From Owenia fusiformis (taxonomy: Eukaryota), in assembly GCA_903813345.2 (NCBI GenBank), contig CAIIXF020000001.1, positions 7,130,001 to 7,194,000 of the forward strand: 64,000 bases of DNA, given 5' to 3'. The position numbers and the translations under genes were made by a program. Shown here one piece after another: positions 4,641 to 56,187 of this stretch; the stretch's first letter is position 1; every line of letters starts with the position of its first letter. The notes beneath the pieces were generated by a model. The model was given only the letters and a program-made list of their open reading frames with translations, was not told where the DNA came from and made no database searches.

Positions 4641-5513
4641 TGAGATTTCAAACCTATATCGAAACTCCTCAACTGATAATAAATTGCAACGCAATGAACA
4701 TGTCTACCAGTATATACCATACGACACTAACTGACAATGGGGGTTGGACATTGCAATTTAAGAAAAATGGAGACGAGATGAGAATAAGTTACGAAAAAAT
4801 ATCACAATTTTACAATATTTTCTCTCTCATTATTACATTTCATAGTGTTATCTGAAAAGCCAAACAGTTGTTTTGCCTTTATTTCAGTATAATCGTGTGT
4901 ATTTTAAGGTAGTTTTCGAAGGGATTGCCTTCAAGATTTTACACGATCCCTTCTTATCATTGAAGACACTGAAATACTTCCATCATAATGTTACCTCATA
5001 AGAGTACGGAGGAACAATTAGAATTCAGTTCGAAAAATATAATTCAATTCATTTAGATAATTACAGAACTATATACAAGCAACTAAACAAGAAATATTAA
5101 CATTAGAACTTCTGGATGAATATGATATTTCAAGCTACGTGAACCTTACGGCATCTCCGAATTCCTTTAGGTTATTGTCATTTGCAATTTGGTTTTACAT
5201 AAGCATGAAGCTCATGGAGATACCTTTTTATAGTACATGTATGCCGTAATGTTTAATAACATCGAGATTTAGAGTTTTATCATATTGTTGGCAATGATAG
5301 GCTGCAACTAGAACTAGCATTGACAACGTGTGATGATGGCTCGGTCATGATACTTGAATGTTTCGATGACACATTCTGACGCATTCCAGTGTCGCTTGTC
5401 TCATACAGACATGTTGTCTCCTCATTTTTTACTCCAGTTTCACTGCGTGTCGGTATAATTGGCTCCTTTGGCCAAGCGCCATTGTGACTTATGTAGCCTT
5501 TATTGATATCTAA

Positions 5514-5653
5514 TGCCTTGGTCACATAGGCTCCGATTTTCACTACGGCGCCCGGCCGATTGAGTATTTTGTTCAAAATTGAATACAATATTGAACAAAA
5601 CACTCAATCGGCCGGGCGCCGGCCGATGGATCGGAGCATATGTGACCCAGGCA
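5514..5653. mobile_element. 140-bp fold-back MITE (PIF/Harbinger-like) in the last exon of the receptor gene
   Basis: TIR TGCCTTGGTCACATAGGCTCCGAT / ATCGGAGCATATGTGACCCAGGCA plus an inner inverted repeat. Flanked by TAA (5511-5513) and TCA (5654-5656). Removing 5514-5656 joins ...YLAW to LDINKGY... in frame. Confidence 0.8.
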
Positions 5654-8600
5654 TCACCAGGCCAAGTAGGTACCATCTATACTTTGTTCTGTCGGCTCTC
5701 TGACACTACCAGGAAGGATCGGAACTTTCAAAGCTGGTGAATTTGCAATTGCTTGATCTTGTTGTTCTTCGTCACTTACTTTGATTTTGGCTCTTCTTGT
5801 AGGTCGCACTATGCCCGTCCTTGATATGTCTGCTTCCTTCTGTATTCTCAGAATGGCATCCTCGAGAATCCGTTCAACATCTATACGACTTTGCTTTTTT
5901 GGAAGACCTTTGAAGAAGCCAAGAAGGTCTTTTATGTCCTGAATCCCTGGGTTTCTCAATGTTAACTCTAAAAAGTTCAGCATTTTCCAAGTTGGACTTT
6001 GACGATGGGAGTGTTTCTGTATTTGTTCAACATCTTTTTCTGATAGACTCAGGTATGACGCTAAAATTCTCCAGTCATTACCACATATTGTATTCTCGTT
6101 GGTGTCAAGTTTGTCCACCAAGTCATTTCGTTCGTCGAGATTAAATAGCGATCCCCTCGTAGAGTTTGGGCGACTGTCAATCTTTTTGGCCTCGAGTGAC
6201 TTTTGGAATTGATTTTGTTTTTTCTGGGAGGTCGAGATAGCGACGGATTTCGATTCAAATTTGCCGAGGATTTCAATTCTACATCTAAATTGAGTCATTT
6301 TTGTCTGCGATAAATACCATCTCCTTGCTATCTCTTGGTCGAAGAAACAATTCAGTGAAGGCGACCTGAGAAAATAGAGGGATGATAATTTAGTTATTGT
6401 GGAAGGATGTCATAGTTCTCCGAACTGAAGGATTTAAAAATATAGCATAGGCCTACTAGTATGCAAATGATTATGATGCGAATTTAGTTAAAATTGTCAA
6501 AGCTGGGACAATGCATAATCACGAACAGCGCCTCGCCAAACCTGTTTGCAGGTCGAAAACACATCGTTACAATTTTAGCTCATCAATACCTCGTGCATAT
6601 TGTCTTCTTTCAAGGATGGTCCATATACACTCCATGCTTTGTCAACATCTACAAGGCTGGCAGTAATAGTCCCGTGCTCTTCACTTGGATCAATTCGAAT
6701 CTGAAAAGGGTTCGTCGATACACGCATTTTACCTTGTTGTTCTTCCTCTGTTAGAACACTCTAAAAATGAAATAACATTCTCAATTTTTAATATATTTCA
6801 AATTAATAACACTTCACAAAGACAATTCACAAAATTACACCTACCGACATTATATTACACAATATTGTAATGAACGAAGAAACACAAAACTAATTCACAT
6901 CTGGATTACCAGTTAAAAGACATACGTGTACCTCTAACTCATTCGAATCGATGCACCAAATGTACAAGATAAGATCTTCACCCTCAATGATCTGACTGGC
7001 CAGAATCAAAATCGTCTTCCAGTACATCTCGCCTCTCGGGGAAGCCTCGGAATGCTGTTGGCCAATTGTACCGAATCCAGTAAAGTGTGATAAAAACAAG
7101 GTGATGTTTTCTTTTTGAACCAAGGCGTCAGAAGAAGGGTCCTCGTCCACAAAATCATATTCCAATTGGTTGTTCGTGGTTTTAGTATAGATTGTCTTCA
7201 CCTGCCAATCTTTTAGCCGTGTCACGTAGTGTGGGTAGGAAAGTGTTATCATATTTTCAAATTTAAACCCATCAGGTCCACAAATAATGAATGGACTTAT
7301 GATCTGGCCTTGCTTATTCATGGATGCAGAAACATGTGTAGTATCTGGATGTACGTACATAAAAATACGCTGTCTCGTCCCCTTTGGAATAGCTCCCGGT
7401 GGCACGAACATAGTGACTCTGTAGGCTGGTAGCTCAAGGCGCCCTCCCTCTTCCGTCAGGATATCCTCCACGTAAAATGGGGAATCAGATGATACATCTA
7501 AGGCTGGAAGCAGCTGGTGTTGTTTGCTGCGCTTTTCGATGTTGTGACACACAGACTGCCCGATGCTATCTTGCGATTTGTGCTGTCCAAGGATGCCCTC
7601 TAAACTGTTGCCGAGACTATAATAGGCGCTGTCGGAGTCAGTTCGAATGACCTTGCTATATTTGTCCTTAGGGAGGAGCGAATCAATGTAATCACTACTA
7701 TCCAGAGCTTCAGCATTTTTTCCATCTTTTACGATAACTGCCTTGTTGAAACTGTATAGCTCATCATTTTCATCCGATTTTATTTTCACAACTTCATGTA
7801 TAGGGGTTGAAACTTTGATATCGTTGATATAATCGTTTTCTGTTTGTATCGTGGTTTCAGGCGTGCATACAGGTACTTGTATGTCTTGTGTGATTTTGTT
7901 ATCTTTATTTTCATACGGCTCACTATATATCGCCTCTTGGACGTATGAAGAGTCGGACATTGTACCATTCGCCCGTTGTTTCTGAATGAGTAAAATAATA
8001 AAATAATAAATTTATTTTTAGTATCTATATAGCCTAAGCTTCATCAGAAAGTCCTTCTTTGCCAAGCTGATGAGTGCGATGTTAATTTATATTATAATTT
8101 CAATGAGAATATACAACGCCCAACTATAAAATGATTAAATGTTTACCTTAGCTCTGAGAAAGAGAGAGGTTCCCAAGGCACTAAAGGCAACAGCAAGGAC
8201 TCCACATCCAAGTGAAATGCCTATTGTCGTTGTCAGGAACACACGGTTACTCCCCTCATCCCTGTACACTCTGCTGATTACATTCGGATCCGACGTTACA
8301 GTCCAAATCATCGTGCCATTCTCTGTTGAATTGTCGAGATAGTTCACAATTTCGCCGCTGTTTTGTAGTCTTGACTTCCATTGTTTTATTGTTTTTCCAC
8401 GGTTAAATGTTATTTTTGTTCTGTTCCTGTAGGCATATTTGCCGTTCTTTTTCATTTCCTTTCTGCACGCATTGATAAACCTATCTTCTCTTGAAATACA
8501 TCTCTTACTTGAAATACACCAGGACGTGAAATGACCTAATTCACAATTTGTCTCAATGGGATTATGACTAAAATCCAAAGACAGGCCATATACAGATCCC

Positions 8601-9567
8601 TCAATGAATGGCACAATATTGTCAATACTCTGATCAGAATAACATTATGCGATAGATTGAGAAATGGCGGTGGTTGTAAGAGGGGCAGTTTTGGATTGAA
8701 ATGAGCGATTGCATCCAGTCCTATATGACTGATGTTGTTGTTTGATACATCTATGTATATTATCTCCTTTGAATCAACTTTATCTTCATATTTTGGACGA
8801 TCTGCGTCACTAAGGGGATCCCAAACTAATTCAACGATACCATTATGTGAACTAATAAGCCTCTTTATGTGTTTGAAACAACCAAGAGGCAAGGGTCTAC
8901 CAGAAAGAGAATCTATGTCGGAAATATAGTCTTGTGAGTCGTTCTTTTTGTTACTCTGGTCAATTTGGATCCGCTGTTGAGAGACGTCCAACTCCCGTAA
9001 CAAAGGCGCAGATGATAGTTCATTCAATAATCCCCAACATACGTTAGCTATGTAATTGTTGGATAACGATAACCATTTCAAATTCGGAAGATGACTTGTG
9101 AGATCACTCTCGATCGCAATGATGTTGTTGCTCTCGAGGGATAAGTGGGTGATGTCGTGAAATATATGACGATGGAAAAACCGCTTTTGCAGTGTAACAT
9201 GTTCCCATTCATTAATGCCATCAAGAATAAACGTTACATTCCCACATTCTTGTTCATCAGTTTGCTTGCGTTTATTTGGAGACATATGTTTACTAGGCCT
9301 TGAGCTGTGTTTCTGAACAATGCTTTTGTAAAATAAACTATTACCCGACAAGTCAATATAACAAGAACGTGGAAGATTTGAAAAATGTCCACTTCTAATA
9401 AAGTTGTGTGAAAGGTTCAAAAGGGTCAAATGTCCTTTAAAATTATCAGTGTTGCTGAGTGACGGAGGTATAATACGTAAATGATTATGAGACAAATCAA
9501 TTACAGAAATGTGCTGGGTGAGAGAAAAACGATGTAAAGAATGAATATTTGAACTAATGGTGTTATT

Positions 9568-10113
9568 TTATCCCGTTCCCGGACTATAGTCCTGCACTGA
9601 TCGCATTCATTTGCCTGTACGATTACAACTTGTGAGAATTATCTACGCCCCTTACACTTAAGATACCTACCTCAATGCATTATAGAACTCAAGATGTAAC
9701 TTCTAATATATTGGAACCGCCGATTGTCTGGGTATATCGGCAGAACGGGAACATTTTCTCTTTTTCATCGAGAGAGATTCCATCACTTTTCAAAATGGCG
9801 GTTGGATTTAAAAGGGGAATCCCCCGTTTGGCTGTCCCGGATGTAGCCCGGAAGTACCAATATGGAGGAATTTGACGGTTGAAATAAGTTAAATGTTACA
9901 CGCAAATATTGCGATCAAAAACGAAAATGTCTTCGTTCTGCCGATAAACCCAGACAATTGTGGATTCAACTACACGAAAAGAATGCTAAATTACCAAGGA
10001 ATCTATTGAAGTAGGTATCTGAAGTGTAAGATCAGTAAAAAATTCTCCCATGTTGTAATCGCACAGGCAAAAGATTGAGATGTTCACAGGACCATAGTCC
10101 GGGAACGGGATAA
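9568..10113. mobile_element. 546-bp MITE with 8-bp TSD in the LRR exon
   Basis: TIR TTATCCCGTTCCCGGACTATAGTCCTG / CAGGACCATAGTCCGGGAACGGGATAA. TSD GTGTTATT at 9560-9567 and 10114-10121. Removal restores ...SNLPNNT-ISSNIHSLHRFSLTQHISVIDLSHN... Confidence 0.9.
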
Positions 10114-10715
10114 GTGTTATTGGGAAGGTTGGACAATGAGATACGAGCAAGTGGGGTACCGGAGCAGTCAACGTGCACGAATCTGTTGAGCTCAGTTGAA
10201 CAGTTGCACGAGGAGCAGATAGAGTCAGTCTCTTTCCTTCGTGGTTGCACCCCCAGTATATGATACAGGAAAACCCAGACAAATAGGAGGTGCTCAGTAT
10301 TTTGGTACGATCAGTGGTCATGAAGCTGTTCATATTTGCCTGCCATCTATATGCTCACAAGCAGACGAATCCTGCTTTTGGGAATGTCATCTAATTCTTG
10401 CATCTGAAAATATGATACACAATCTGATTTAAAAAGATACTGGGATAAACTGGGGTAAAAATCCAGTCCTCTGAGCTTTCTTTAAATGTTGTTGTTTTGT
10501 TCATCGAGTTTAAAATTTTAAAATTGTAACTCTCAAAAATTAACCAACCTAGTTATAAGTGTAGTTATAAAATTCAATCTTCAAATCAGTGAAAAAATTC
10601 TAAAAGTCCCTAAAAGTTGCTGTCCCATAGTCTGTCGTTCTTCCGGGGCCAGGTGTCCAGGTCCCGCTTCGATCCTGTTCTCGGGTGTTATTCAGGTGAT
10701 ATAGCAAATTTCATC

Positions 10716-20000: not shown

Positions 20001-22563
20001 TTGAACAAAATCTCTCAACTTCTTTTCGAGTTATAGTAAAATACGTTAAAATGGCGACCATTTTTCAAAATGGCCACCTTCTACCAAAAGTGTCATTAGA
20101 AATAGACAGGGTGCCATGCTTATAGTATTCACATACCAATGAACAAAATCGCTCCACTACTTTTCGAGTTATAGTAAAATATGTTAAAATGGCAGCCATG
20201 TGATAAAACTTATTGTTAGTACCTCAACTCAATTTTTCAAATTTTTTTTCAAAATTGCCGCCTTCTACCAAAAATGCCATAGGACAGTGTGCCATGCTTA
20301 TAGTATTCACATACTAAATATGAACAAAATCGCTCCACTACTTTTCGAGTTATAGTAAAATACGTTAAAATGGCGGCCATTTTTCATTTTTCTACCAAAA
20401 GTGTCTTTAGACAGTGTGCAAAGCTTATAGTATTCACATACCAAATATGAACAAAATCGCTCCACTATTTTTTGAGTTACAGCAAAAATCGTAAAATGAC
20501 GAGTAAAGGCTGCCATTTTTAAAGATGGCTGCCACGTGCTTCTTTAATATCTACATTTGTAGCATTATTAATGTCCTTTATATTCACAAATGTCCTTTAG
20601 TATTCACAAATATGAACAAAATCGCTCCACTACTTTTCGAGTTATAGCAAAATACGTTAAAATGGCGGCCATTTTTCAATTTTTTTTTCAAAATGGCCAC
20701 CTTCTACCAAAAGTGTCTTTAGACAGTGTGCAATGCTTATAATATTCACATACCAAATATGAACAAAATCGCTCCACTATTTTTTGAGTTACAGCAAAAA
20801 TCGTAAAATGACGAGTAAAGGCCACCATTTTTCAAGATGGCTGCCATGTGCTTCTTTAATATCTACATTTGTAGCATTATTAATGTCCTTTATAATTTTT
20901 TTACATTTAAAACATATTGCTATTACAGTTTTACATATTGCACCTAAATTACTGTAAAATCGGCACTAAAATGGCCGCCATTTTGAAATGAGCTGCCATT
21001 TCGAAAATCGGCTTTCGAGCAGAACTTCTACCCCCATAGGGTATATGTGTACAAAATATGAACAAAATCGGGCCAACGGTATTTGAGTTATTGCCCGGAC
21101 GGACGGACGGATGGACGGACTTACGTACGGACGGACGGACGGAGGCGTTCCCTATATCCCTCCGAACTTCGTTCGATGGGATAATAACAAAACTCATGGG
21201 CATTTTCTTGACAGATAGAATATCAAAATAATGACAAAATATTATTCAAAATGAATTAGTTTTAAACAATATTGTAACTTGTGATTTCCTTCAAGTTTTG
21301 AATCATATCTGTCATGTATAAATTGTATTCAAAATTAAAGGAATCTGTTGTTTGAACTTATCTAATTTTACAGGCCATGGGATACACAATGTTTTATAAA
21401 GCATATTATCTCTTTTGTTGAAAATTGTTTTAGATGGCCATAGGAGGCAATCATAGAAATACTTCAGCAACAATTCACTCGAACTCTTGCTTGATTGTGA
21501 TGATTATCATCTTGACTCACACTCATACTGTATAACTAAAAGGAAGTTCACCTTGTGGGTTGGTTGTAAGAATAGCATCACATATATTCAATTTGAGCAG
21601 GAAAGCCCTTAGAGCATCCTCCAAGCGCACTAGATACATGTCTTCACTGCAATGTAACCAAACAAAAGAATTCAGGTTTCATAAAATAATCACAATGTAA
21701 ATGTAGTGATATAAATTCAGCAATGAGTTTGACTAAAAGTTCTCCTAGAATAAGTGAGCTACTTAAATTCAAAAAATGATTGAAATACATGTCAATGCGA
21801 TTTAAGACATGTACCGCACATTAAGGGTTAATAGAATAAGAGTAAGAATGTACCTAAAATCACATGCTGTTGCTGAGGCAATCTCAAAGACGAATTTCTC
21901 TGTTGGTCTGCTGCTACCATCCAATATTGTCATACAGACTCGGTCAGCTGTATGCTTATCCAGCAATGGTTTCAGGCTCTGTATTGTGGCAATTATGTAT
22001 TGGTTCACATCTGGATGGGTTGACATTTGTATCGGAACATTGTATTTCTTGCGTCTTTCAAAGATACCTGCTGGGTATAGTTCTCTTGTGTAAAGAATAC
22101 TATGGAAGGCTACTTCAAGGAATTCACTTAAAATGTCAGATGTCACTGAAAGATAACAGTAAATATTGTTGCGAATAAGTTTATTTACAAAATACTTTTT
22201 AGTGATAACCTCAGAAAACTTCATATAAAACTTTTAGAAATAAATAACTGAATAATGAAGATTGATAGTGCACTGTGAATCACAATTTGCTGATGACAAA
22301 AAGAGGTGCAGTTTGACCTTAGGTTTATATTCTATTCAAATTCTATCACTGTTTTAATTGAACGATTATTGGCATAGACATAGCCTCAGAGAGCAAAAAG
22401 TGAAAAATTATTAGCAAATGCGAATGGGCGATAATGGAGAGAATTATTAGGATTTGTCTGTGGCGAATTGCAATAAATTCTTTACAAGGGACGAATATAA
22501 AATAAAAACGTTGATTTTACCTTGTGTTACATCAAGATTCGTTGAATTTCGTCCAGTATTCAT
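17072..22563 (-). CDS. MAD2L2: MAD2L2/REV7 HORMA-domain protein (DNA pol zeta / shieldin subunit), 6 coding exons, 213 aa
   Basis: Exons 22563-22521, 22145-21854, 21646-21552, 19494-19421, 17756-17664 and 17116-17072 total 642 nt, all GT/AG with consistent phases. Translation includes [72 protein letters not shown] and PLKSV..VVKMQLYVEE, matching REV7 hallmarks. Confidence 0.95.
17812..18332. mobile_element. Non-autonomous hairpin-containing interspersed element (possibly Crypton-like) in MAD2L2 intron 4
   Basis: Starts CTCGATTCTGATTGGTTGA. Internal inverted repeats GCGGTCAACA/TGTTGACCGC and a terminal long hairpin at 18160-18330. Family assignment is from recalled motif similarity only. Confidence 0.4.
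18637..19452. repeat. 79-81-bp minisatellite (~10 units) derived from the MAD2L2 exon-4 3' end and 5' splice site
   Basis: Unit on the minus strand: CATACATCAGAAATAGCTTACTTGTATGCTGAAATAAACATACACCTTAGCTCAA|GTAAGTATCAGCATTATTTCTATG. It aligns with exon 4 CATACAACAGAAATTGCTTATGCTGACATGAAACAAACACCTAAAGCTCAA|GTAAGT. Confidence 0.92.
19674..21190 (+). mobile_element. HINE/DINE-1/pearl-like (Helentron-associated) element with internal tandem repeats, in MAD2L2 intron 3
   Basis: Array of ~120-150-bp units containing AAAATGGCGGCCATTTT. (GGAC)n microsatellite at 21097-21142, then a short 3' hairpin CCCTCCGAACTTCGTTCGATGGG followed by ATAA. Confidence 0.75.
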
Positions 22564-28206: not shown

Positions 28207-31200
28207 CTAACTTAGCCTTCCCTTAAGGGAGGGGCATGCATTTACACAGTGAGTGTCCTGGGCACAATAGAAGCATACTGTAGCTCCAGGAACTTTGGAG
28301 TTTGGATGTCTTTTGGTACAATCAAATACTGAATGACTTCCAGAGTCACATATTTTACAGTATTTTCTTTTCAGTTTGGAATCAGGTTTCTCCTTTGTTA
28401 TAGTTTGAGTCAGATTTCGTGCTAAAGCCTCTATCTTTTGCTCAACTATTTCCATCACATCATTCTCAGAAAGAGATAATGAGGTAGATGAGTTAACCTG
28501 AACAGGAGTTGGAGTAGCACATACACCAGGGTCTTGGAAACGTTCAAGTCTTTTCTTTCTTCCCTTGAAGAAAGCTTCATATTGTAAAGCCATGGTAAGA
28601 GCTTCATTGAGGGTTTTAGGGTTAGAAAAAGAAAGCTTGGATTCCAGTTCTTCATTATTCAAAGCATCAATGAAGGCCTGTGTAGCTAGGTCATCAATTG
28701 TCTTCTTTGACATGCTTGACTTCCCAAAAGCTTGTCTTGACAATTTTCTTATATCATGGGCTAACTTTTCAAGAGGCTCATTATTGCCCCTTAACTTATG
28801 TTTAAGCTCGGCACGGGCATGGTTACTTTGTTCGGGTGGTTCATAGTTAATTTTCAGGACATTTATGATACTAGCTAAGGTTGGCAGGTCTTCATCATCC
28901 AAATCATCTAAAACATTGACAGCCTCTCCTTCAAGACTCCTCACCATAAAGATGGCAGATTCTTCATCTGTCCAACCATTTATGTTAGAGACAAGTCTAA
29001 ATTGGACAAGAAAAGCTGAGAGACTGCACTTTCCATTGAAAAGTGGTGCTTTCATTTCCTTTCTAGAAAACGAAGTACCTCTTCTTTGCTTTTCAAGTCC
29101 AGTACAGGATTCCTGATCAGATGTATTAGGACTGGATATAAACAGATCATTGGGTTTTTCGATCCGTCTGTAGAGACCAGGGGAACTTGGATTCACTTTT
29201 GATCTACTCATAACTGTAGATCTAAGGGGAGGTAAACTATTTTCCATAGCAGATTCATACTCATCAGAATTATTCATGTAGTAAAATGGCCTTTGTCTAG
29301 TTTTTGTATGGTAAGATGGGCATTTCATACTATATTCTACATAATCTCGGTCAGAAAATTCAACAGCGGTTTCAAATTCTGGAGAGGGGAATAGTGATTC
29401 AGCTCGGGAGGATCTAGCATAATCCTCGTTTACCCCCTGTTTGAAGGGGAATTTTTGACAAGGTGTGCACACACTACAAGCATCCTGGGCTGACATCTCA
29501 TGGGAGGGCAAGGCACTTCTGTTATAGCCAGGTATTTGAGCATCAAGCCATGAATGTGTCTCCAAATCTGAATCATAGGTCTGATCCACACTTTTGGGTA
29601 GACAATATGGCTGTCTGCGATTGGCAGAAAACTTAGTGCTTTGAGATGATTTGTCTGATAAACTGAACATATCAGATCTATCAACAACTTGGATTTTGCA
29701 AGGAGGGGATTTACTAGATTCACATAAAACTCTATCATTAGGCCTCTTTAAATCTTGTCTACAAAGGGTACTTTCGGGTTGATGCATACATTCATAACGT
29801 TTGGACTTAATATCCGAGTATGGGACAGTCTGCTCAGTTAAAAATTCAGCATGTTTCAACTTGTTAGGTTCACTTAATTGAGTAATCTCTTTTGTTACTT
29901 TAGGGACATTTGGAAGCTGGAAATCCCTGTTGAGATCACATGACTCATCAGCTGATAGTGCCTCTTTAGGCAAACCTCTTGTGTATTTAAGGTCATTACA
30001 CATTGAGAGTGGTATTCTATCAGATGGGATCAGTAAAGAGCTTTGCAAAGTCTGTTTTAACAGTTCACCCCCATATGCTTCCTGGAGCATGTCACTCTCA
30101 TGAGGTACTGGTAGCACCGGAGGAAGGGATGGAACCTGGTAGTTGACTTGCACATCCTTTACTACTCCCATTTTGCTAGAATGACCTAACAAATCATAGT
30201 TTGGCTTTGTATAGTCGTCTTTTCTCTCTTGTTTGACATAAATTTGGGACTTCAGTGTCAAATTACGGGAATGAGAGAAATCTGGGGTCTTTGGTCTAAA
30301 TCTGGGAATGTCAGTTATCTTTATTGGGGGAAGTAATGGTCTAAATGGAGAGGACTGAAATTTGTTTGGCCAGCTCTGTGGCTCATTTTTCTGATTCGCA
30401 CTTGGTAATAGAGGAGAAGTATGCATTGAATGTTTGCTTGGGTTTAAATCAGAAAAACTGCCATGACTTGCAGATCTTCCATGAGAAGAAACCTTTGTGG
30501 ATGTCATTAAACCCTGTCCAGACTTTCTACCAGCTGTATGAGTAGATGCACTGGATGGCTTACCAGGGTAAGCACGAGGGAGTGTTTGGACATCTAAGGG
30601 TTTTCTAGATTGGAATGTTCCCATTGTTGACAGTTTATCCAATGGTTTTTGCAATTCAGAGGACTTAGCAATTTGAGAATCACTTGTCCTTTCATACTTA
30701 GGGTGTAAAACTCTTTGATCATTAGGCCCTAAATCCGTTTTTAAATAGGGGGCTAAACTGAGGGGTGAAAAAGCTTGTTTAGTAGTAGCTCTTGTTCCAT
30801 TGGCTGGAAGAGGCTTTAAAGGAGGTGTTTTAGATGGCATTCCCCCATAAGCACCCATCAGGGTTTCCCTTTCAAGGGACCCAGGTGCACCAGCTATGGG
30901 GGGTTCATATGCCCCACCTCTACTACTCACACTTTTTTCACCATTTTTTGAAGATACCAAATTCATGTCATTTTTGGGGTCTTTAGTCTCCTGCTTAACC
31001 CTTTTAAGCAGGGAATTAAACAACCTACCCTTGGGAAGTGGTCTAGGCCTATCTAACAGTAATTTAGGAATGCGCGTCAATTTGACAGGTGGAGAAACCT
31101 TAAAAGATGGTCTCTTTATTGGGGGTGGTGTAGTTACTGATGATTCAAGTGGAAGTGTATCGTCTTGAGCCAATTTCAACTCTTGTTCATTAAGGTGTTG

Positions 31201-31359
31201 ATGGCCCAATACAACTTCAGAATCATCAAACCACCCGGGGATAATAGTGTCAAAAGTTTCCGCCTGCGATTTCTGGCTAGACAAGGGTCTTTCAGTGGAT
31301 TCGGACATGTGTAATGGGGTGCGCTTAGCGAGATTAAAAATGTCCAACTTTTCCGACAT
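28207..31359 (-). CDS. gag: Gag-like protein (~1,050 aa): long S/P-rich N-terminal region, Ty3/gypsy capsid domain, two CCHC zinc knuckles
   Basis: Uninterrupted ORF with the first ATG ~105 nt after the PBS. Capsid-like segment PLFNGK..FLVQF..VSNINGW..SLEGEA..ARAELKHKLRGNNEPLEKLAHDIRKL..AFIDAL..PKTLNEAL. Knuckles CKICDSGSHSVFDC and CFYCAQDTHCVNAC fit CX2CX4HX4C. Confidence 0.92.
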   Translation of the reverse strand: MSEKLDIFNLAKRTPLHMSESTERPLSSQKSQAETFDTIIPGWFDDSEVVLGHQHLNEQELKLAQDDTLPLESSVTTPPPIKRPSFKVSPPVKLTRIPKLLLDRPRPLPKGRLFNSLLKRVKQETKDPKNDMNLVSSKNGEKSVSSRGGAYEPPIAGAPGSLERETLMGAYGGMPSKTPPLKPLPANGTRATTKQAFSPLSLAPYLKTDLGPNDQRVLHPKYERTSDSQIAKSSELQKPLDKLSTMGTFQSRKPLDVQTLPRAYPGKPSSASTHTAGRKSGQGLMTSTKVSSHGRSASHGSFSDLNPSKHSMHTSPLLPSANQKNEPQSWPNKFQSSPFRPLLPPIKITDIPRFRPKTPDFSHSRNLTLKSQIYVKQERKDDYTKPNYDLLGHSSKMGVVKDVQVNYQVPSLPPVLPVPHESDMLQEAYGGELLKQTLQSSLLIPSDRIPLSMCNDLKYTRGLPKEALSADESCDLNRDFQLPNVPKVTKEITQLSEPNKLKHAEFLTEQTVPYSDIKSKRYECMHQPESTLCRQDLKRPNDRVLCESSKSPPCKIQVVDRSDMFSLSDKSSQSTKFSANRRQPYCLPKSVDQTYDSDLETHSWLDAQIPGYNRSALPSHEMSAQDACSVCTPCQKFPFKQGVNEDYARSSRAESLFPSPEFETAVEFSDRDYVEYSMKCPSYHTKTRQRPFYYMNNSDEYESAMENSLPPLRSTVMSRSKVNPSSPGLYRRIEKPNDLFISSPNTSDQESCTGLEKQRRGTSFSRKEMKAPLFNGKCSLSAFLVQFRLVSNINGWTDEESAIFMVRSLEGEAVNVLDDLDDEDLPTLASIINVLKINYEPPEQSNHARAELKHKLRGNNEPLEKLAHDIRKLSRQAFGKSSMSKKTIDDLATQAFIDALNNEELESKLSFSNPKTLNEALTMALQYEAFFKGRKKRLERFQDPGVCATPTPVQVNSSTSLSLSENDVMEIVEQKIEALARNLTQTITKEKPDSKLKRKYCKICDSGSHSVFDCTKRHPNSKVPGATVCFYCAQDTHCVNACPSLKGRLS

Positions 31360-31465
31360 TGTCAATTACAGTTAATGATCCCGCTTTGAATATTAATGAG
31401 TGCAAATTAGCATAAACGTAAGTAATGGCGTAAAAATGGGCTTGGGTCAATACTTCAAGTATTGC

Positions 31466-54975: not shown

Positions 54976-55289
54976 GTAAGTTTTGTTATAATTAATATTT
55001 ATTTATTTGTTTTTGTTATATGATCATAATATAAAATCAGAAATTCACAAGACTACATTTTTGTCTTTATGTTTCATTTCACATGATGAAACTCTCATAA
55101 AAAATATTAGATATCCTTTTGTGGTCATTAAGATCTCATCAACATAGAATTATAAGAGTATTTGTGGTAATCAGAGGGCAGTGTCAGGGCTAGCTGATGG
55201 AATTTCAGGGTAAGGGAATAACACATATGCTAAGGGCTATTGGCCAGCCATCTTGCATGGAGGTCCAGCAGATACGGAAATTGTATACA

Positions 55290-56187
55290 GAGATTGTAGG
55301 ATGGTTGTACCAAGGGAAATATGTAAAATACATTGAAATGATTGTATGATGATTGTACCAAGTGAAATATCTGAAATACTTGAAATGATTGTATGATGAA
55401 TGTACCAAAGGAAATATCTAAAATACCTTGAGATGATCATCTGATGACTGTACCAAATGAAATATCTAAAATACCTTGAAATGATTGTATGATGATTGTT
55501 CCAAATAAAATATCTAAAATACCTTGAAATGATTGTATGATGGTTGTACCTAGTGAAATATCTAAAATACCTTGAAATGATTGTATGGTGATTGTACCAA
55601 ATGAAATATCTAAAATACCTTGAAATGATTGAATGATGATTGTACCAAGTGAAATATCTAATATACCTTGAAATGATTGGATGATGATTGTACCTAGTGA
55701 AATATCTAAAATGCCTTGAAATAATTGGATGATGATTGTTCTAAATGAAATATCTAAAATACCTTGAAATGATGATTGTACCAAGTGAAGTATCTAAAAT
55801 ACCTTGAAATGATTGGATGATGATTGTACCTAGTTAAATATCTAAAATACCTAAAAATGATTGTATGATGATTGTTCCAAATGAAATATCTAAAATACCT
55901 TGAAATGATTGGATGATGATTGTACCTAGTAAAATATCTAAAATACCTTGAAATGATTGTATTATGGTTGTACCTCGTGAAATATCTAAAATACCTTGAG
56001 ATTATTGTATTATGGTTGTACCTAATGAAATATCTAAACTACCTTGAAATGATTGTATGATGATTGTACCATGTGAAATATCTAAAACACCTTGAAATGA
56101 TTGGATGATGATTGTACGTAGTATATATCTAAAATACCTTGAGATGATTATGATGATTGTACAAAGTGTTATATCTGAAACACCTTA
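55290..56187. repeat. 48-bp minisatellite, ~18 copies
   Basis: Unit GAAATATCTAAAATACCTTGAAATGATTGTATGATGATTGTACCAAGT. Confidence 0.95.

Follow-up and report, generated by a model that had tools for sequence, protein, structure and literature searches.

Does the annelid Owenia fusiformis carry, in a single gene, the extracellular leucine-rich repeats (LRRs) of one kind of receptor and the cytoplasmic death-domain tail of another? The question is raised by a minus-strand locus in a stretch of 64,000 nucleotides from this species (contig CAIIXF020000001.1, positions 7,130,001 to 7,194,000), which we call the window and whose first letter is position 1. A first-pass annotation had read here a signal peptide, LRRs and a transmembrane (TM) helix in one exon, joined by a phase-0 splice to exons encoding ZU5, UPA-like and death domains, and had presented the product as an exon-shuffled receptor that matches no known type. 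Our analysis finds the LRR-TM-ZU5-UPA-death-domain anatomy as it had been described, because the Pfam and structural matches agree on it; the gene product is probably a type I membrane receptor, encoded by a single gene that runs from an LRR ectodomain to a ZU5-UPA-death-domain tail of the UNC5CL-like kind. The assembled haplotype of this gene is a null allele, and a less damaged haplotype exists at the same locus.

The junction between ectodomain and tail

Exon 1 ends in the donor ...GCT AAG/GTAAAC at 8147, and exon 2 starts at 7981 behind the acceptor ...TTCAG/AAA (slashes mark the splice); the sites are canonical, the junction is in phase 0 as first proposed, and the protein across it reads LRAK/KQRANG. 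The splice divides the basic stop-transfer cluster RAK/KQR, which exon 2 completes. Upstream of it, the last LRR, the LRRCT-like cysteine cluster and the TM helix share a single open reading frame (ORF, 8135-8644) that runs into the canonical donor, and the summed exon lengths come to ~1,267 codons, in keeping with the ~1,270 amino acids (aa) of the earlier reconstruction. The same junction, together with both later introns, is used by P0001, a deposited, unnamed O. fusiformis gene model of 707 aa that is 100% identical to the window. P0001 begins at an internal Met (about 8455) because the frame upstream is broken, which leaves the public protein without the whole LRR ectodomain, and it includes a false intron of 118 nucleotides (nt; 6200-6317) that conceals a frameshift of 8 base pairs (bp). 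The lesson for annotation is that a false intron in a gene model can mask a frameshift, and that a whole ectodomain can drop out.

The two parts might instead be adjoining genes fused by the model, an LRR-TM surface protein and a separate cytosolic ZU5-UPA-death-domain gene translated from the first Met of exon 2, which lies eight codons in. The ORF of the TM exon does stop three codons past the donor, where read-through (...LRAKVNI-stop) would yield a cytoplasmic tail of seven residues, and UNC5CL-type relatives usually have a short N-terminal anchor of their own. Three RNA runs (X18-X20), of each of which about 6-12% was sampled, gave no read over 7815-8618 and hence none across the 8147/7981 junction, so that P0001 and the logic of the sequence are the basis for this splice; the junction in P0001 could itself be RNA-guided or predicted ab initio. 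Against two genes stand the distance of just 165 nt between the parts, bordered by canonical GT..AG in phase 0, and the positive-inside cluster, which needs exon 2. A tail begun at the Met of exon 2 would have no anchor, unlike the related proteins P0005 and P0008 (TM helix near residue 26-29); P0001 joins both parts, and sense reads of run X18 fall on both. We regard two separate genes, wrongly fused by the model, as very improbable.

On its extracellular side Pfam calls LRR_8 in 8539-9567 (expectation value E 1.1e-12, 47.9 bits; cut-off 27), and the whole irregular LRR region of exon 1 holds at least seven clear LxLxxNxL units. The LRRCT-like cluster is followed by a stalk of ~100 aa with N-glycosylation sequons, which leads to the TM helix; in all, an ectodomain of ~640 aa precedes the helix, and it is on this LRR side that the sequons and cysteine clusters lie. 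Pfam found no TIR domain, whether in the exon translations (threshold E 0.1) or in P0001 (threshold E 1), in line with the earlier judgement that the gene is not a Toll-like receptor (TLR), and a TIR exon could not fit into intron 1 because the intron measures only 165 nt. The first-pass annotation had nonetheless called the ectodomain Toll-like. This is not a specific statement, because the relatives of the LRRs are generic: designed LRR proteins and LRRC32 head the matches in the PDB, TLR7 appearing only at E 9e-5, the Atlas matches are generic LRR clusters, and a word-index search of the LRR exon against longer proteins returned three weak generic LRR proteins. A single-sequence fold of the LRR exon reached a predicted local distance difference test score (pLDDT) of 35, too low for use in a comparison with TLRs.

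On the cytoplasmic side a death domain is called by Pfam in 5657-6409 (E 1.5e-5, 25.5 bits; cut-off 22.6) and is followed by a tail of ~150 aa. An AlphaFold model of P0001, computed with 28 relatives as input, gives the ZU5 and death domains a pLDDT of ~90 and the UPA part one of 70-80. The best solved match of this model in Foldseek is 3g5b, the ZU5-UPA-death-domain tail of UNC5b (E 1e-18, 409 columns), and the second structural match is the ZU5-ZU5-UPA-death-domain part of ankyrin-B. Relatives that carry a Pfam UPA domain align through the corresponding stretch of the window, including QFRCRIEIL, and they align straight through the stretch that the false intron of P0001 skips, in the other frame, including the conserved FRC motif. 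Judged by predicted fold and by homology, a UPA domain is present. Both Pfam and the model find a single ZU5 stretch in the gene, and this, with the TM helix, rules out the identity with PIDD1 that the first pass had also rejected. It had likewise separated the gene from UNC5, and in the Pfam scan of the window translations Ig and TSP1 domains (Unc5_NetrinR_N, I-set and TSP_1) are absent. The features of the gene are collected in Table 1.

Table 1. Features of the O. fusiformis gene and of its reference copy, in positions of the window
Feature	Position	Strand	Description and basis
Gene, four exons	10333-5280	minus	Owenia fusiformis (annelid); direct reading and ORF list
Exon 1	about 10333 to 8147	minus	signal-peptide-like start, LRRNT-like cluster, LRRs, LRRCT-like cluster, stalk, TM helix
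Putative start codon and signal-peptide-like hydrophobic stretch	10245-10333 (ATG 10331-10333)	minus	read from sequence; putative signal peptide
1-nt frameshift near ~10300	between 10311 and about 10290; A4 run 10301-10304	minus	in the reference, ATG and LRRNT-like cluster read in different frames
LRRNT-like cysteine cluster C-x2-C-x-C-x11-C and first LRR strand, up to MITE 1 site	10114-10217	minus	cysteine spacing
MITE 1	9568-10113	unstranded	546 bp, non-autonomous, 114-nt terminal inverted repeats; interrupts LRR exon; absent from X1
LRR ectodomain, main part	8645-9559	minus	at least six clear LxLxxNxL units and irregular insertions; Pfam LRR_8 and motif positions
1-nt frameshift near ~8640, between two LRRs	8636-8646	minus	reference short of 1 nt; ORF 8536-9567 to ORF 8135-8644, frame offset 2
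Last LRR (LDFSHNPI) and four-cysteine LRRCT-like cluster	8465-8635	minus	same open ORF as TM helix
TM helix VFLTTTIGISLGCGVLAVAFSALGTSLFL	8156-8242	minus	hydropathy 1.99; helix 71-107 of P0001 model
Intron 1	7982-8146, 165 nt	minus	GT..AG, phase 0; separates LRR-TM exon from tail; junction used in P0001
Exon 2	7981-6932	minus	juxtamembrane segment, then ZU5
Cytoplasmic juxtamembrane region	7478-7981	minus	~168 aa, 9 tyrosines; predicted disordered, pLDDT <50 at P0001 residues 114-268
ZU5 domain	7050-7477	minus	Pfam E 9.4e-18, 64.7 bits (cut-off 21); model pLDDT ~90
HFT motif (SHFTGF) at end of ZU5	7079-7087	minus	alignment with relatives
UPA domain (end of exon 2, exon 3, start of exon 4)	6200-7049	minus	fold match 3g5b and alignment of relatives
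Intron 2	6761-6931	minus	within UPA
Exon 3	6590-6760	minus	part of UPA
Intron 3	6366-6589	minus	within UPA
Exon 4	from 6365 down to stop codon 5280-5282	minus	end of UPA, death domain, C-terminal tail
8-bp deletion	at 6294/6295 (site 6287-6300)	minus	frame shift within UPA of reference
Death domain	5816-6139	minus	Pfam; six helices at P0001 547-654, pLDDT ~90
MITE 2	5513-5654	unstranded	142 bp, almost perfectly palindromic; inside C-terminal tail of last exon; absent from X1 and from one RNA read
C-terminal 76 codons and stop (5280-5282)	5280-5510	minus	in frame with death-domain exon when MITE 2 is absent

Relatives of the tail and the HF-T motif

An exhaustive HMMER search with P0001 gave 302 matches at E up to 1e-3, the best 150 of which were listed and 149 used as relatives; 79 matches lie at E up to 1e-10, and only the gene's own model at E up to 1e-30. 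The best non-self match among those listed is an Owenia paralogue, P0005 (992 aa), with an N-terminal anchor, ZU5, UPA and Death; its match to P0001 is confined to the tail, at 26-30% identity (26% over 416 aa), and it contains no LRRs. Over the matched stretches the 25 best matches are 24-36% identical. Word-index searches, run with the tail exon against longer proteins and with a profile of 28 tails, returned only the window's own model.

The names of these relatives point away from canonical UNC5. Among 30 matches whose names we compared, 24 are not canonical UNC5 (16 called UNC5C-like or netrin receptor UNC5B/C-like, seven uncharacterized or unnamed, and one toll-like receptor 2), and they come from Owenia, hemichordates, crinoids, a starfish and amphioxus. 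Canonical UNC5 accounts for four, from a crinoid, a starfish, a mosquito and Nematostella, while the remaining two are amphioxus models named UNC5C and UNC5CL, identified by Pfam as a V-set form and a tail of TLR type. In the Atlas, the closest clusters are "Netrin receptor UNC5", of ZU5-UPA-Death make-up (score 0.89), and "Unc-5 family C-terminal like" (score 0.87). A tree of 31 tails unites 27 non-canonical ones, the window gene included, in a clade with a Shimodaira-Hasegawa-like approximate likelihood-ratio (SH-aLRT) support of 98, and canonical UNC5 falls outside it. As to the position of the window tail within the clade, the approximately unbiased (AU) test rejects neither its grouping with the amphioxus TLR-type tails (p 0.45) nor that with the Owenia paralogue (p 0.60). 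By sequence, the tail is a member of the UNC5CL-like clade and is set apart from canonical UNC5, PIDD1 and ankyrin. The description of the tail as UNC5/PIDD-type was correct as to its ZU5-UPA-death-domain content, and missed UNC5CL, which the tree, the names and the Atlas clusters all indicate as the closest family and which had not been considered.

A further likeness to UNC5CL lies at the end of the ZU5 domain. Of the 149 listed relatives, 118 align over the HFT motif, and 108 of these 118 read HFT (86), HFC (15) or HFS (7), so that the third position varies only among nucleophiles; at the same place the canonical UNC5 protein P0103 has HLG. Self-cleavage of PIDD1 is placed between F445 and S446 in the part of PMC9162469 available to us, and the nucleophile can be serine, threonine or cysteine according to the corresponding part of PMC3210808. 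Retention of autoproteolysis by UNC5CL is stated in passages of PMC10084454 and PMC7883297. As far as these partial sources describe it, SHFTGF matches the self-cleavage site HF/S of PIDD1, Nup98 and UNC5CL in both position and pattern (PMC3210808, PMC9162469, PMC7883297, PMC10084454). The HF-T of the window gene is, on this likeness, a motif of the autoproteolysis type and a putative cleavage site.

A null reference allele and a less damaged haplotype

Restoring the reference reading frame takes five repairs: of two miniature inverted-repeat transposable elements (MITEs), of an 8-bp deletion and of two 1-nt frameshifts. A second haplotype, carried by another individual, is represented by the X1 contigs, which we consider DNA-like because they cover introns at exon depth, and which differ from the reference by about 1-4%. 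In the reference MITE 1 lies between the two copies of an 8-bp target-site duplication, AATAACAC (10114-10121 and 9560-9567), whose size we take to be typical of hAT elements; a second copy was not found in the window, and the element occurs in RNA reads on both strands. MITE 2 creates the stop at 5654-5656, the one used by P0001; its depth in X1 exceeds 50,000, it is abundant in the RNA runs, and its insertion is polymorphic. Both elements have depths in the thousands in X1 and, in the RNA runs, depths 10-100 times that of the exons, from which we take them to be high-copy repeats.

X1 lacks both insertions. Its joint from 9556 to 10114 (depth 24.3) passes over the site of MITE 1 with 15 extra in-frame nt (18 joint letters were compared with the reference), and that from 5511 to 5656 (depth 19.3) passes over the site of MITE 2 in frame, the stop at 5280 following after another 76 codons. 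Eight bases inserted in X1 at 6294 (depth 15.4 of 15.4) mend the UPA frame, and an insertion of 36 nt at 8927/8928 is likewise in frame. Both 1-nt shifts lie in short homopolymer runs and may be real or assembly errors; around the site near ~8640 both frames read as LRR sequence. The first-pass annotation had expected intact paralogues elsewhere. None was found among the listed protein matches or within the window, and what we see instead is another allele of this locus with less damage.

The differences between the two haplotypes are unevenly placed. Over the 1,980 coding nt of the tail exons, 13 synonymous and 10 non-synonymous differences are listed, which gives a ratio of non-synonymous to synonymous differences per site (pN/pS) of 0.21 (binomial p 2.4e-4 against the 21% of synonymous sites expected); the value comes from one haplotype pair, without correction for transitions and transversions, and from 40 of 128 listed difference rows, in which the tail contigs are nearly complete. 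The tail has been under purifying selection between haplotypes until recently, and from the same ratio we take the decay of the gene to be recent. The LRR exon is more divergent: stretches of 324 and 232 nt in it hold 12 and 5 differences, respectively, as against 18 in 1,385 nt in the tail.

As a separate observation, the stretch 8860-9514 of the LRR exon differs between reference and X1 by 2-4%, compared with 1.3% in the tail, and carries in addition the in-frame indels of 15 and 36 nt.

Transcripts are rare, and they have the letters of the other allele. In all of the exon reads the first mate lies on the plus strand, which is sense to the gene in a usual stranded library; reads of X18 hit the LRR exon (8820-9422) and also the tail exons, one of them skips MITE 2, and at variant sites the RNA reads carry X1-like letters. 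The rare sense-strand transcripts stem from the less damaged haplotype. With a null allele marked by MITEs and a less damaged one beside it, the locus offers a natural knockout that lends itself to study in a laboratory annelid.

Beyond the uncovered junction, a number of observations weigh against an intact, functional receptor gene. The X1 contigs end near both 1-nt frameshift sites (one end at ~8660); of the five lesions, the X1 haplotype is shown to lack at least three, and a fully open allele is so far hypothetical. Expression is very low, at ~14 reads on unique exon bins in X18-X20 (an estimate from bin depths). On the whole of P0001 the Death match scores 21.3 bits, slightly below the cut-off of 22.6; UPA is not called by Pfam in the exon translations or in P0001, nor are LRRNT and LRRCT, both suggested by cysteine spacing alone. 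All listed non-self matches (the best 150 of 302) fall on ZU5-UPA-death domain and none on the ectodomain or TM helix, a specific relative of the LRR exon was not found in the word-index, PDB and Atlas searches, and the protein searches found no orthologue or paralogue of the same architecture. The branch that leads to the window gene in the tree is long, at 1.9 changes per column, which could mean relaxed constraint.

Some of these points would equally suit a dead or never-functional chimera, an accidental product of shuffling that is decaying in all haplotypes. The five disabling lesions of the reference, the very low transcript level, the lack of a counterpart with the same architecture, the long branch, and an LRR exon more polymorphic than the tail, with its in-frame indels of 15 and 36 nt, are all what such a gene might look like. 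X1, however, is without three of the five lesions and in frame at each of these, and the extra indels of the LRR exon are multiples of three. A tail pN/pS as low as 0.21 is unexpected in a long-dead gene, and the HF-T motif and the cores of the ZU5 and death domains are conserved and confidently folded. We consider it unlikely that the gene is dead in all haplotypes, and a receptor gene with a recent null allele remains our preferred reading.

No paralogues of the gene were found within the window. At 28207-31365 (minus strand) lies an open ORF of 1,052 codons, serine- and proline-rich with CCHC-like Cys/His motifs near its end; its weak match to a Ty3 capsid-like domain (19.4 bits, where the cut-off is 29.1; E 7e-4) suggests that it may be a gag-derived gene. 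An exon with a HORMA domain (21805-22233, minus strand; Pfam E 1.3e-7) belongs to a neighbouring unrelated gene, and an ORF at 55237-55740 (minus strand) consists of ~13-aa tandem repeats (NHH.IISRYFRYF...) in a region of strong GC skew (0.14 at 52-56 kb).

Proposed mechanism and known systems

The most likely origin of the gene is that an LRR-TM exon was set, in phase 0, ahead of an UNC5CL-type gene, and exon shuffling, as first suggested, is the natural route. A function in pattern recognition or as a dependence receptor, also proposed at first pass, is a hypothesis. By analogy with PIDD1 and UNC5CL, we infer the following model. Binding of a ligand to the LRR ectodomain would cluster the receptor, and clustering would open the closed ZU5-UPA-death-domain supramodule. 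The ZU5 domain would then cleave itself between F and T, as in PIDD1 and UNC5CL, and the death domain could nucleate a death-domain complex with either an IRAK/Pelle-type kinase, on the analogy of UNC5CL, or a caspase adaptor. The outcome would tie LRR sensing to NF-kB-type (or JNK-type) or death signalling with neither TIR nor MyD88. Ligand, cleavage and signalling partners are all modelled on these analogues.

LRR-TM proteins are often adhesion molecules, and the architecture could be real and yet serve adhesion, guidance or a developmental dependence receptor like UNC5, not microbial recognition. The LRRs showed no specific affinity to TLRs in the PDB and Atlas searches, and no immune gene cluster is seen in the flanks of the locus; in the portion of PMC10084454 available, ZU5-UPA-death domain is the module through which UNC5 receptors for guidance and dependence signal. 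The tail of the window gene, however, falls in the UNC5CL-like and not in the canonical UNC5 clade, and it keeps the HF-T that a canonical UNC5 protein (P0103) lacks. Immune-type receptors, more typically than developmental genes, combine a presence/absence polymorphism with an ectodomain that varies. UNC5CL itself, as Heinz and colleagues reportedly found in 2012, activates IRAK and NF-kB signalling. A role in guidance or adhesion we consider unlikely.

To our knowledge, the upstream input of UNC5CL-type tails in vertebrates is not known. If functional, the Owenia gene would be a natural example of such a tail with a ligand-binding ectodomain, and a third route, in addition to TIR-MyD88 and cytosolic NLR/PIDD, by which an LRR sensor outside the cell can feed into death-fold signalling. 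To the domain-shuffled receptors known in amphioxus and sea urchins it adds one from a lophotrochozoan. A bolder proposal, which we hold to be quite improbable as a whole, is that it stands for a class of LRR sensors at the cell surface that lack TIR and would signal independently of MyD88 through an autoproteolytic UNC5CL-type module, with a functional/null polymorphism and a fast-evolving ectodomain in Owenia populations, and with a tail that may share ancestry with the TLR-TIR-ZU5-death-domain receptors of amphioxus. If true, that shared ancestry would be an old, unnoticed bilaterian link of Toll-type ectodomains with ZU5-death-domain signalling.

How exceptional the architecture is can be judged from the N-terminal parts of its relatives. 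A Pfam scan of 20 of the 149 listed relatives found ZU5 in all 20 and Death in 15. Ahead of the tail, 11 of the 20 have nothing detectable or a bare anchor; three are canonical UNC5, with Unc5_NetrinR_N and Ig, and TSP1 in most; three have Furin-like and GF_recep_IV domains (Ptychodera, Glandiceps, amphioxus); two, from amphioxus, have Ig or V-set only, one of them below the Pfam cut-off; and one, P0056, "toll-like receptor 2" of Branchiostoma floridae, has LRR-TM-TIR. When all 149 were searched by motif scan and by phmmer with LRR queries, LRRs appeared only in the amphioxus gene of P0056. An LRR-TM part leading directly to ZU5-UPA-death domain without a TIR is found in none of the 149 listed relatives, nor did we find in the literature searched a description of an LRR-TM receptor whose tail holds ZU5 or a death domain, the supplementary tables of domain combinations in amphioxus lying outside that search. 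The claim that the architecture matches no known type stands to this extent. It is less exceptional than had been held, because the tail is already shuffled onto several ectodomains, and for the same reason we regard it as a further variant of known shuffling, not as a category of its own. Judged by its sequence relatives, the tail is a promiscuous module, and the window gene is one more ectodomain swap. Shuffled receptors of the immune type, LRR-caspase and TNFR-caspase, are described for amphioxus in the parts seen of PMC2575513 and PMC2858798.

Four known systems share parts of this plan. PIDD1 has LRRs, ZU5, UPA and a death domain, and self-cleaves at HF/S according to the available portion of PMC9162469; it is cytosolic, however, with no signal peptide or TM helix, two ZU5 domains and intracellular LRRs, whereas the window gene has a TM helix and one ZU5. 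In the part of PMC11463336 available, PIDD1 is reported as undetectable in lophotrochozoans. Toll-like receptors are type I proteins with an LRR ectodomain between cysteine clusters and a single TM helix, as here, and differ in having a TIR domain, which the window gene lacks; its LRRs gave generic matches in the PDB and Atlas searches. Canonical UNC5 is a type I receptor with a ZU5-UPA-death-domain tail, that of UNC5b being the best structural match; its ectodomain is Ig-Ig-TSP1-TSP1 (P0103, P0132), or in P0129 an Ig part with a CFP-type TSP1. UNC5CL (ZUD) comes closest in the tail, with a membrane anchor, a cytoplasmic ZU5-UPA-death domain, an HF-[S/T]-type motif and a place in the same clade, and it gives its name to the named relatives that score best. 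It is described, in the portion seen of PMC10084454, as having a short N-terminal anchor and no ectodomain, in contrast to the type I window gene with its LRR ectodomain.

Nearest in overall plan are the amphioxus TLRs that carry the tail (P0056, and P0013 of B. lanceolatum), which share with the window gene an LRR ectodomain, a TM helix, an UNC5CL-like ZU5 tail and the motif HFTG; in P0013 the tail continues past ZU5 to Death. They differ in the TIR domain, which in P0056 lies between TM helix and ZU5 (E 1.2e-22) and is missing from the window gene; the ectodomains are only generically similar as LRRs (tblastn E 8e-4), and the ZU5 domains are 32% identical. We note in passing that these Branchiostoma "toll-like receptor 2" proteins, with ZU5 after the TIR in P0056 and Death in P0013, represent a TLR with an UNC5CL-like tail that is undescribed in the literature searched. 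The Furin-like/GF_recep_IV-TM-ZU5-death-domain proteins of Ptychodera, Glandiceps and amphioxus and the Ig-TM-ZU5 proteins of amphioxus follow the same principle of tail swapping, with different ectodomains; all are from deuterostome invertebrates, and none has LRRs directly on the tail. Among the 149 listed relatives, the gene of O. fusiformis is the first swap seen with LRRs directly on this tail, and the first seen from a protostome.

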